From an uncultured Clostridia bacterium (lineage in GTDB: Bacteria; Bacillota; Clostridia; TANB77; CAG-508): a DNA stretch of 15,412 nucleotides. Made by a program: the position numbers and the translations under genes. This document shows positions 7,054 through 7,835 of this stretch, piece by piece. The DNA lies in the NCBI GenBank assembly GCA_944389745.1, contig CALXNM010000032.1, positions 1 through 15,412 on the forward strand, in the 5' to 3' direction. The number at the start of each line of letters is the position of its first letter. Positions within the stretch are counted from its first letter, which is position 1. The notes beneath the pieces were generated by a model. It saw only the letters and a program-made list of their open reading frames with translations, had not been told where the DNA came from and searched no databases.

Positions 7054-7078
7054 ATGTGTATTTTTTACGCAAATATAA
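7054..7078. promoter_or_regulatory. Operator-like motif copy B (A-TGTGTA-TTTTT-TACGCA-AATATAA on the plus strand), 25-49 nt upstream of the kinase ATG
   Basis: Its reverse complement TTATATT-TGCGTA-AAAAA-TACACA-T matches 7811-7835 at 20 of 25 positions; only the central 5 nt differ. The core TGCGTA-N5-TACACA is a palindrome with one mismatch. Confidence 0.5.
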
Positions 7079-7089
7079 TCAAAATTTAA

Positions 7090-7108
7090 AGTGATTTTGT
7101 TAATCACT
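7090..7108 (-). terminator. Weak hairpin immediately after the regulator stop codon (possible partial terminator or attenuator)
   Basis: AGTGATT (7090-7096) pairs with AATCACT (7102-7108), 7 bp with a 5-nt loop. The RNA continues UUAAAUUUUGAUUAUAUUU. The stem is AT-rich and the U tract is interrupted, so read-through into the kinase gene is likely. Confidence 0.3.
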
Positions 7109-7789
7109 CTAAAAAATATCAACATCATAATCCTTACTTTGTATAAATTTATATAAATTTGCTGGCTTATGTCCTTTATTTGACTCTTTCATTCCTGTAT
7201 TTTCAATTAATCCTAATTGAAGAAATTTTTTTCTGAAATTTCTTCTGTCAAATTTTTTGTTAAGTATTACCTCATATACTTTTTGCAACTCTGGCAATGT
7301 AAAATATTTGGGTAGTAATGCTTTAACAATATTTGTTCTTATTATTTTTACTTTTAAGGTTTTTAAAGCATATAAAAATATTTCATGATGATCATATGCT
7401 AAATCTTCTGGAACCTCTGACAATTTAAACCATTCTACATCTTGAGTTTTTTCTGTCTTTTTCTTTATTTTTAAATTTTCACTGTTTATAATTCCAATAT
7501 ATCCAACAGCAAGCATCCTCATTACTGGAGATCTATTTGGATTGCTAAAAACATGAAATTGTTCTACATAGAAATTAGTAATTCCTGTTTTTTCTAGCAT
7601 TTCCCTCTTCATGGCTGTTTCACAATCTTCATTATTATATACGGCACCACTTGGTAACATCCATTTATCTGGATACGGATTATTGCTTCTCTTAGCCAAT
7701 AAAATTTTTACCTCTCCATCTTTAACAGTAAATAGTGCACAAACTACATGTATACCTTGATTTCTATACAAAGGATTACTTATGTCCAT
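7109..7789 (-). CDS. NrtR-family transcriptional regulator (Nudix domain plus C-terminal winged helix)
   Basis: Nudix box is GAVYNNEDCETAMKREMLEKTGI (nt 7580-7648). The C-terminal LAYDHHEI...FTLPELQKVYEVILNKKFDRRNFRKKF...KPANLYKF matches the NrtR wHTH pattern (AFDH, FTL.eLQ..YE, NFRRK, RPA.LY.F). I place the start at ATG 7787-7789 (GAGGTG plus a 7-nt spacer; 226 aa) rather than the GTG at 7798 used in the ORF track. Confidence 0.8.
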   Translation of the reverse strand: MDISNPLYRNQGIHVVCALFTVKDGEVKILLAKRSNNPYPDKWMLPSGAVYNNEDCETAMKREMLEKTGITNFYVEQFHVFSNPNRSPVMRMLAVGYIGIINSENLKIKKKTEKTQDVEWFKLSEVPEDLAYDHHEIFLYALKTLKVKIIRTNIVKALLPKYFTLPELQKVYEVILNKKFDRRNFRKKFLQLGLIENTGMKESNKGHKPANLYKFIQSKDYDVDIF

Positions 7790-7810
7790 CTTTTTCACCT
7801 CTTTTCAAAA

Positions 7811-7835
7811 TTATATTTGCGTATTCCATACACAT
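7811..7835. promoter_or_regulatory. Operator-like motif copy A (TTATATT-TGCGTA-TTCCA-TACACA-T), overlapping the -10 box and transcription start of the regulator gene
   Basis: See copy B. It overlaps the last two bases of the -10 (7834-7839) and covers the predicted +1 (about 7827), the usual placement for autorepression. Confidence 0.5.

Follow-up and report, generated by a model that had tools for sequence, protein, structure and literature searches.

Regulators of the NrtR family combine an N-terminal Nudix-like domain with a C-terminal winged helix, and their operators are 21-bp palindromes with a conserved GT-N7-AC core (Rodionov 2008, PMC2330246). In layouts of the type '#nrtR-...-#target', promoter-overlapping sites precede both nrtR and the adjacent operon (PMC2330246). 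SoNrtR from Shewanella oneidensis (PDB 3gz5, 3gz6, 3gz8) is an ADP-ribose-responsive repressor of prs-nadV, whereas MsNrtR from Mycobacterium smegmatis is an auto-repressor that acts on genes of de novo nicotinamide adenine dinucleotide (NAD) synthesis through a palindrome lying between nrtR and the divergent target operon (nrtR<>nadABC, motif GTTTTCGA-N7-TCGAAAAC), its DNA binding being disrupted by ADP-ribose (PMC6800001). BtAraR from Bacteroides thetaiotaomicron (PDB 5bs6, 5dd4, 5ddg, 5deq), by contrast, is a sensor of L-arabinose that no longer has the nucleotide pocket; its operators have GTGTA-N5/6-(T/G)ACAC half-sites, often stand in tandem upstream of one operon and have been validated experimentally (AGTGTATTTGATACACC, AGTGTTACTTTTACACC, AGTGTAAAAAAGACACT), and in the co-crystal the recognition-helix residues K179, R180, N181 and K184 together with the wing residues K204 and R205 'define the GTGT motif' (PMC4666351). 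Here we describe a 15,412-nucleotide stretch of DNA from an uncultured Clostridia bacterium (contig CALXNM010000032.1; the window in what follows), in which two closely similar palindromes enclose an nrtR gene and very probably serve as operators for a dimer of the repressor that this gene encodes.

The long open reading frames around the two sites all lie on the minus strand, in the order addA, dnaE, nrtR, P-loop kinase, radical S-adenosylmethionine (radical-SAM) protein, nucleotidyltransferase-like protein and ABC exporter. The palindromes had been picked out in a sequence-only reading of the window as a shared 25-bp motif. Positions 7811-7835 of the plus strand read TTATATTTGCGTATTCCATACACAT and the reverse complement of 7054-7078 reads TTATATTTGCGTAAAAAATACACAT; when both 25-mers were read again, the reported identity at 20 of 25 positions, with the differences confined to the 5-nt centre, was recovered. 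A repeat finder extends the arms to 7810-7835 and 7054-7079 (22 of 26 positions match), with all four mismatches inside the 5-nt centre. The elements on which the argument rests are the following.

7818-7834, plus strand TGCGTA-TTCCA-TACACA, gene direction TGTGTATGGAATACGCA: predicted operator A, 17-bp core, its position kept in orthologous loci
7055-7071, plus strand TGTGTA-TTTTT-TACGCA, gene direction TGCGTAAAAAATACACA: predicted operator B, 17-bp core
7109-7789, minus strand: nrtR, 226 residues, Nudix domain plus NrtR winged-helix domain, start at the ATG at 7789

With up to one mismatch allowed, TGYGTA-N5-TACRCA occurs in the window at 7055-7071 and 7818-7834 only, and no third copy appears at up to two mismatches. 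The motif would be expected 0.07 times in the window; two matches were reached in none of 200 dinucleotide shuffles, and the inverted 13+N5+7 pair in none of 200 mononucleotide shuffles, which agrees with the earlier judgement that the match is far beyond chance. Both copies contain the GT-N7-AC core of the NrtR family, at 7821-7831 in operator A (GT 7821-22, AC 7830-31) and at 7058-7068 in operator B (GT 7058-59, AC 7067-68), and in both this core is centred on the palindrome.

Pfam finds a Nudix domain in the nrtR product (PF00293, NUDIX, 7.3e-15, residues 19-140), followed by the NrtR winged-helix domain (PF21906, NrtR_WHD, 1.6e-24, residues 160-218). A GTG upstream of the ATG at 7789 falls within the ribosome-binding site GAGGTG, and the homologues are likewise 226 residues long. 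The closest solved structures are BtAraR (5bs6, E 6e-32) and SoNrtR (3gz5/3gz6, E 5e-29), the latter having the same two-domain fold although its sequence similarity is low and its target genes are different. The recognition-helix and wing residues R182, R183, N184, K187, H207 and K208 of the window protein align with K179, R180, N181, K184, K204 and R205 of BtAraR, and the two proteins have a recognition helix of the form D-K/R-R-N-F-R-K in common, intercalating arginine included. The GTGT half-sites of both window sites are those of the operator co-crystallised with BtAraR, with which the recognition helix and wing of the window protein appear compatible; unlike the often tandem BtAraR sites, those of the window flank the regulator gene on both sides. 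The earlier proposal that a dimer of the adjacent Nudix regulator contacts the two half-sites thus gains a family, a core motif and a structural precedent, all of which make such binding probable.

The ligand-binding domain points away from the arabinose sensor. The Nudix box is nearly intact (GX5EX7REUXE(K)XGU), and N36 and K67 occupy the places of two SoNrtR residues, N43 and K76, that contact the ADP phosphates, whereas BtAraR has F36 and L67 there. A nucleotide-type ligand therefore seems more likely than a sugar, and that it is ADP-ribose we infer by analogy with SoNrtR, whose ADP-ribose-released repressor is adopted here as the mechanistic model.

Conservation of the sites was followed in homologues of 53-96% identity that could be placed on contigs (loci designated by L numbers below) and in nine GTDB species representatives. 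In the ten loci formed by the window and these nine representatives (166 kb), all 20 sites with no more than one mismatch lie within 80 nt of an nrtR end, and no near-consensus site was found away from the nrtR ends. There are two sites per locus throughout the clade of 62-96% identity, as well as in L023 (52%) and L012 (57%), and this two-site layout around nrtR is kept in about 13 related genomes. In the relatives the first site is positioned 29-57 nt 5' of the nrtR start and the second 36-60 nt 3' of the nrtR stop, the latter nearly always with an A5 centre. An alignment of 30 sites shows no variation at G2, G4, T5, A6, A13, C14, C16 and A17, either C or T at position 3, and either A or G at position 15, so that the degenerate consensus TGyGTA-N5-TACrCA, first drawn from two copies, describes the natural variation exactly. 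The 'inverted orientation' that the sequence-only reading assigned to the pair is, on the other hand, without meaning: relatives such as L015, L016, L019 and L020 show that the C/T wobble can fall in one half or the other at both sites, which makes orientation uninformative for a symmetric dimer site.

The association extends well beyond this clade. A scan of metagenomes for the exact sequence TGYGTAAAAAATACRCA listed 80 matching stretches (0.54 Mb), 22 of which encode an NrtR homologue (28-53% identity, on contigs of 25-56% GC); in 21 of these 22 listed stretches the site is within about 250 nt of the NrtR gene. Given this association, neither a generic repeat nor a regulator outside the NrtR family can account for the motif. 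A dispersed intergenic repeat, which would have undone the regulatory proposal, was also rejected on the confinement of the sites to the nrtR flanks in the 166 kb of related loci and on the lack of any further window copy at up to two mismatches. The genes found across the site in the listed stretches include prs (the classic nrtR-prs arrangement, with two tandem sites, in L114), NAD-dependent DNA ligase, alpha-amylases and VWA-domain proteins. The last are seen in distant NrtR loci with the identical 17-mer (L150 3957-4595, L156 4717-5739, L163 1156-1791), and they may be equivalent to the 'nrtX/nrtY' targets that the 2008 paper left unexplained.

The positions of the two sites relative to predicted promoters and hairpins suggest how they would operate.

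7834-7862, minus strand: predicted nrtR promoter, -35 TTGACA (7862-7857), 17-nt spacer, -10 TAGAAT (7839-7834), 11 of 12 consensus matches
7940-7956, minus strand: terminator-like hairpin after dnaE, which would shield the nrtR promoter from transcription that comes in from upstream
7810-7817, minus strand: flank of operator A, gene direction AATATAAT, a 2-nt spacer plus a perfect TATAAT (7815-7810), the inverted counterpart of 7072-7079
7085-7113, minus strand: stem-loop over the nrtR stop codon, arms AGAGTGATT/AATCACTTT extended by A/U pairs, RNA fold -10.9 kcal/mol
7072-7103, minus strand: candidate internal cassette promoter, -35-like TTAACA (7103-7098) and -10-like GATTAT/TATATT (7080-7072) abutting operator B, 9 of 12 matches

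The promoter that precedes nrtR in the relatives consists of TTGACA and TATAAT, 17 nt apart, and the final T of this -10 box is at the same time the first base of the operator. In the window the predicted -10 likewise ends on the first base of operator A, which consequently would cover the expected transcription start; this agrees with the reported overlap of copy A with the -10 and +1, is the classic position of a repressor and implies autoregulation. Copy B lies, as had been noted, 25-49 nt upstream of the kinase ATG (7029), after the stem-loop at 7085-7113. That stem-loop is present in all relatives, its stem sequences differing by lineage while pairing is preserved through compensatory changes, and it would act either as a terminator that leaks or as a hairpin that stabilises the 3' end; a canonical intrinsic terminator after nrtR, in either direction, was rejected, as in most relatives the hairpin has a U-run upstream and an A-run downstream. 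A -10-like TAtcAA|T stands at the equivalent place before operator B in the relatives. The weakness of the promoter predicted at B leaves two mechanisms to be considered, occlusion of an internal promoter or a roadblock to read-through.

On the model adopted from SoNrtR, NrtR bound to operator A would block RNA polymerase and so autoregulate its own gene, as MsNrtR does. At operator B it would block the weak internal promoter, stand as a roadblock to polymerase reading through from the nrtR promoter, or do both, and thereby keep off the cassette of P-loop kinase, MiaB-like radical-SAM enzyme and nucleotidyltransferase-like protein. Repression rather than activation would thus be expected at each site. 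Binding of a nucleotide-type ligand in the Nudix-like domain, most probably ADP-ribose or a related product of NAD, would free NrtR from DNA and allow both units to be induced together. The predicted arrangement, with promoter-overlapping sites before nrtR and the adjacent operon, is that of the '#nrtR-...-#target' layouts of the family, although the target, with no known role in NAD metabolism, is different. The operator itself is textbook NrtR biology and brings no new mechanism; what is new, and mildly so, is a radical-SAM cassette as the target.

The direct adjacency of copy B and the kinase has a more recent origin than the operator. Both L007 and L013 have a gene for a GFO/IDH/MocA oxidoreductase between operator B and the kinase. 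By blastn, L007 1331-2139 corresponds to window 7863-7055 and L007 2993-5887 to window 7056-4202, leaving 853 bp (L007 2140-2992) missing from the window, with the junction at the last bases of operator B and a CA microhomology. Copy B accordingly adjoins the kinase through a recent deletion of 853 bp of the oxidoreductase gene in the window, so that its position before the kinase was correctly described while the adjacency is owed to this loss alone. What is left of the deleted gene is short.

7030-7056, minus strand: 3' remnant of the deleted GFO/IDH/MocA gene, about 27 nt, which includes the ribosome-binding site of the kinase (blastn against L007)

In another lineage (L096/L097) the cassette is likewise without the oxidoreductase gene.

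The part of the repeat that extends beyond the operator core calls for a separate explanation. Read in gene direction, copy A has AA plus TATAAT as its flank and copy B the -10-like GATTATATT. These 8 nt are shared in the window and L013 only; L007, with an NrtR 96% identical, has two changes, and the shared flank is absent in all other relatives. The TTATATT flank, which had been counted as part of the motif, hence lies outside the conserved operator and is a -10-like box specific to the clade of the window and L013. We read the flank as a -10-type box, current or vestigial, that is probably no protein-contacted part of the operator. At operator A it may be a second or vestigial -10. Composites of this type occur elsewhere: in L023, L095, L220, L093 and L218 the operator itself forms the 17-bp spacer between TTGACA and TATAAT, and in L219 the cassette is preceded by the TACACA-AATATAAT composite known from the window. 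A divergent or antisense promoter starting from the flank boxes was considered and rejected, the -35 positions being poor by eye.

Chance similarity in AT-rich intergenic DNA would be the simplest account of the two copies, and the window is indeed AT-rich, with many low-identity inverted repeats listed. Against it stand the expectation and the shuffles reported above, and the strict retention of the site position in other genomes, and we give it a vanishingly small probability. The palindromes could instead serve another dimeric regulator, for instance of the CRP/FNR type (TGTGA-N6-TCACA) or the Rex type. TGTG...CACA half-sites superficially resemble CRP-type sites, and it is from sequence that the palindromes are assigned to NrtR. 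The window sites, however, are TGTGT-N7-ACACA and differ from TGTGA-N6-TCACA in both spacing and the fifth base, and no CRP/FNR-type regulator is encoded in the window. The sites moreover track nrtR across genomes of 25-56% GC (22 of the 80 exact matches listed, 20 of 20 near-consensus sites), and the closest solved homologue, BtAraR, reads the GTGT half-site through contact residues that are conserved in the window protein, which makes another regulator highly improbable.

A third explanation would take the 26-nt arms as inverted repeats that mark a rearrangement, whether they bound an nrtR segment able to move or invert or arose by gene conversion between two sites, with the extended part non-regulatory. 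The arms do flank nrtR in inverted orientation, the identity of the 8-nt flank is improbable by chance (about 7e-5 per arrangement), operator B is exactly where the deletion ends, and the cassette behind nrtR is not the same in all relatives. Yet the orientation of nrtR relative to the cassette is constant in all relatives, no recombinase or transposase is found nearby in the window, the 17-bp cores are kept at both positions in relatives that lack flank similarity, and the flank is a TATAAT-like box of a kind that recurs as operator-plus-TATAAT composites in L023, L095, L219 and L220. Mobile-element ends or an invertible segment were for these reasons rejected as the main explanation, and rearrangement in general appears unlikely, even if gene conversion of the flank within the clade of the window and L013 may have occurred.

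Operators for NrtR remain by far the best account of the two copies, and yet several observations weigh against it. Dimer binding does not account for the shared 8-nt flank. The window protein scores 145.2 bits against NCBIfam NF050029, 'ADPR responsive transcriptional repressor NtrR', for which the cutoff is 400, and it is on this evidence a member of the NrtR family rather than an equivalog of that model. The ADP-ribose contacts of SoNrtR are only partly kept, V89 of the window protein aligning with R98, so that the effector could differ. The promoter predicted at operator B is weak, with 9 of 12 matches and its -35 box in the loop of the hairpin, which makes it uncertain how control at B would work. 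Finally, the window cassette contains no recognisable NAD-metabolism gene (the domain matches are AAA_18, UPF0004 plus Radical_SAM and a weak NTP_transf_2), so that the usual logic of NrtR, in which NAD turnover is sensed and NAD supply adjusted, is not evident. The regulons typical of the family consist of genes of NAD synthesis or salvage, pentose or ADP-ribosylation, to which the window cassette does not belong.

The genes of the putative target cassette and those upstream of nrtR are as follows.

11672-15412, minus strand: addA
8007-11441, minus strand: dnaE
6439-7029, minus strand: P-loop kinase, 196 residues, AAA_18, the first cassette gene in the window
5310-6488, minus strand: MiaB/RimO-like radical-SAM protein, 392 residues, UPF0004 plus radical SAM
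4471-5313, minus strand: polymerase-beta-type nucleotidyltransferase-like protein, 280 residues, invariant GS...DxD, OB-fold-like beta domains

The cassette genes overlap, the radical-SAM reading frame starting 50 nt inside that of the kinase (6439-6488) and the ATG of the nucleotidyltransferase-like gene overlapping the radical-SAM stop codon (ATGA, 5310-5313). For the kinase the best named NCBIfam resemblance is a distant one, to 2-phosphoglycerate kinase (2.6e-18), and no PDB sequence matched it. The radical-SAM protein has no match to the TRAM domain and scores 232.8 against the 251-bit cutoff of TIGR00089, the alignment ending at profile position 365 of 429; judged by these two features it would fall outside the MiaB/RimO methylthiotransferases. 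The nucleotidyltransferase-like protein matches NTP_transf_2 weakly and has about 174 detectable homologues among 5.8 billion protein clusters. Its AlphaFold2 model has a predicted local distance difference test score (pLDDT) of 95.7; a Foldseek search of this model against PDB and BFVD returned weak matches at the level of an OB-fold, with E above 1e-3, and a profile search of PDB with the protein gave no match. The combination of a radical-SAM protein without TRAM and an OB-fold-like downstream partner hints that the two may form a complex, with the substrate bound by the partner. Among the papers searched, none links NrtR with radical-SAM proteins or methylthiotransferases. A known defence system was considered and rejected, PADLOC on four proteins giving weak generic P-loop and Nudix matches only and no system-level match.

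The three- or four-gene cassette is kept at 51-60% identity in other lineages, and in six of the seven lineages sampled it is preceded by NrtR-type sites, which it keeps even where no nrtR is adjacent.

L093/94: four NrtR-type sites, some before further radical-SAM and HD-hydrolase genes
L095: two NrtR-type sites before the cassette
L218: three NrtR-type sites before the cassette
L219: nrtR adjacent to the cassette, three NrtR-type sites
L220: NrtR-type sites before the cassette
L096/97: cassette without NrtR-type sites, the only such lineage among the seven

Together with the two-site layout in related genomes, these sites lend weight to the earlier suggestion that the regulator and the cassette form one regulon, which on comparative grounds is probable. 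In L093 and L218 the sites are found before the unit of oxidoreductase, kinase, radical-SAM and nucleotidyltransferase-like genes and also before an extra radical-SAM gene, an HD phosphohydrolase gene and an RlmN-like radical-SAM gene, which suggests a larger radical-SAM regulon. The individual positions are 1658, 3234, 3377 and 4388 in L093 and 1322, 1480 and 2539 in L218; in neither is nrtR adjacent.

The same operator is also found with other genes behind it. In nrtR orthologues of 62-80% identity it is followed by a different cassette, composed of two NirJ/AhbD-like SPASM radical-SAM proteins and a protein of about 216 residues for which there is no Pfam or NCBIfam match (L001 6747-10112, with equivalents in L003, L005, L009 and L014-L020), and the genes that flank the module of nrtR and this alternative cassette vary between genomes. 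In nrtR orthologues of 57% identity the apparent target is a nadR-like AAA_28 gene, and, as in the described family (PMC2330246), the distant orthologues with the same motif would control such a nadR-like gene (L011/L012) or prs (L114). One reading of this variety, which we hold to be possible if on balance doubtful, is that nrtR, the stem-loop and operator B constitute a conserved regulatory 'socket' for alternative radical-SAM cassettes, and that these cassettes make up a so far unrecognised pathway with ADP-ribose or NAD turnover as its inducer. Type I would then be the oxidoreductase, kinase, MiaB-like and nucleotidyltransferase-OB cassette, and type II the two SPASM radical-SAM enzymes with the protein of about 216 residues. 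If this were true, the pathway could serve the modification or repair of nucleotides or RNA, or the response to NAD cleavage under stress or phage attack, and not NAD supply.

The value of the motif lies in the functional handle that it offers, as it would place a rare, conserved and uncharacterised radical-SAM cassette of three to four genes under a repressor family that reads NAD turnover, and in close relatives would place a second radical-SAM cassette under the same control. The entry point would be the ligand that releases this NrtR, and the question of whether the cassette acts on that ligand or responds to it.

Two further features were seen downstream of the cassette. At 3541-4242 of the window (minus strand) an ABC-transporter ATPase gene, upstream of an FtsX-type permease gene, is split by a frameshift near 4080; the part with the Walker A motif (MAYIEFKN...GPSGAGKTT...) stops at about 4075 and the remainder, in another frame, is a 192-residue open reading frame at 3541-4119, which makes the gene either a pseudogene or the product of an assembly error. 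The permease, of the FtsX/MacB type and 1092 residues long (236-3514, minus strand), contains a long, highly charged E/K-rich insertion, especially at 1979-2718, that is coiled-coil-like, and the DNA of this insertion shows a 21-nt periodicity with the repeat families D1 and D2.

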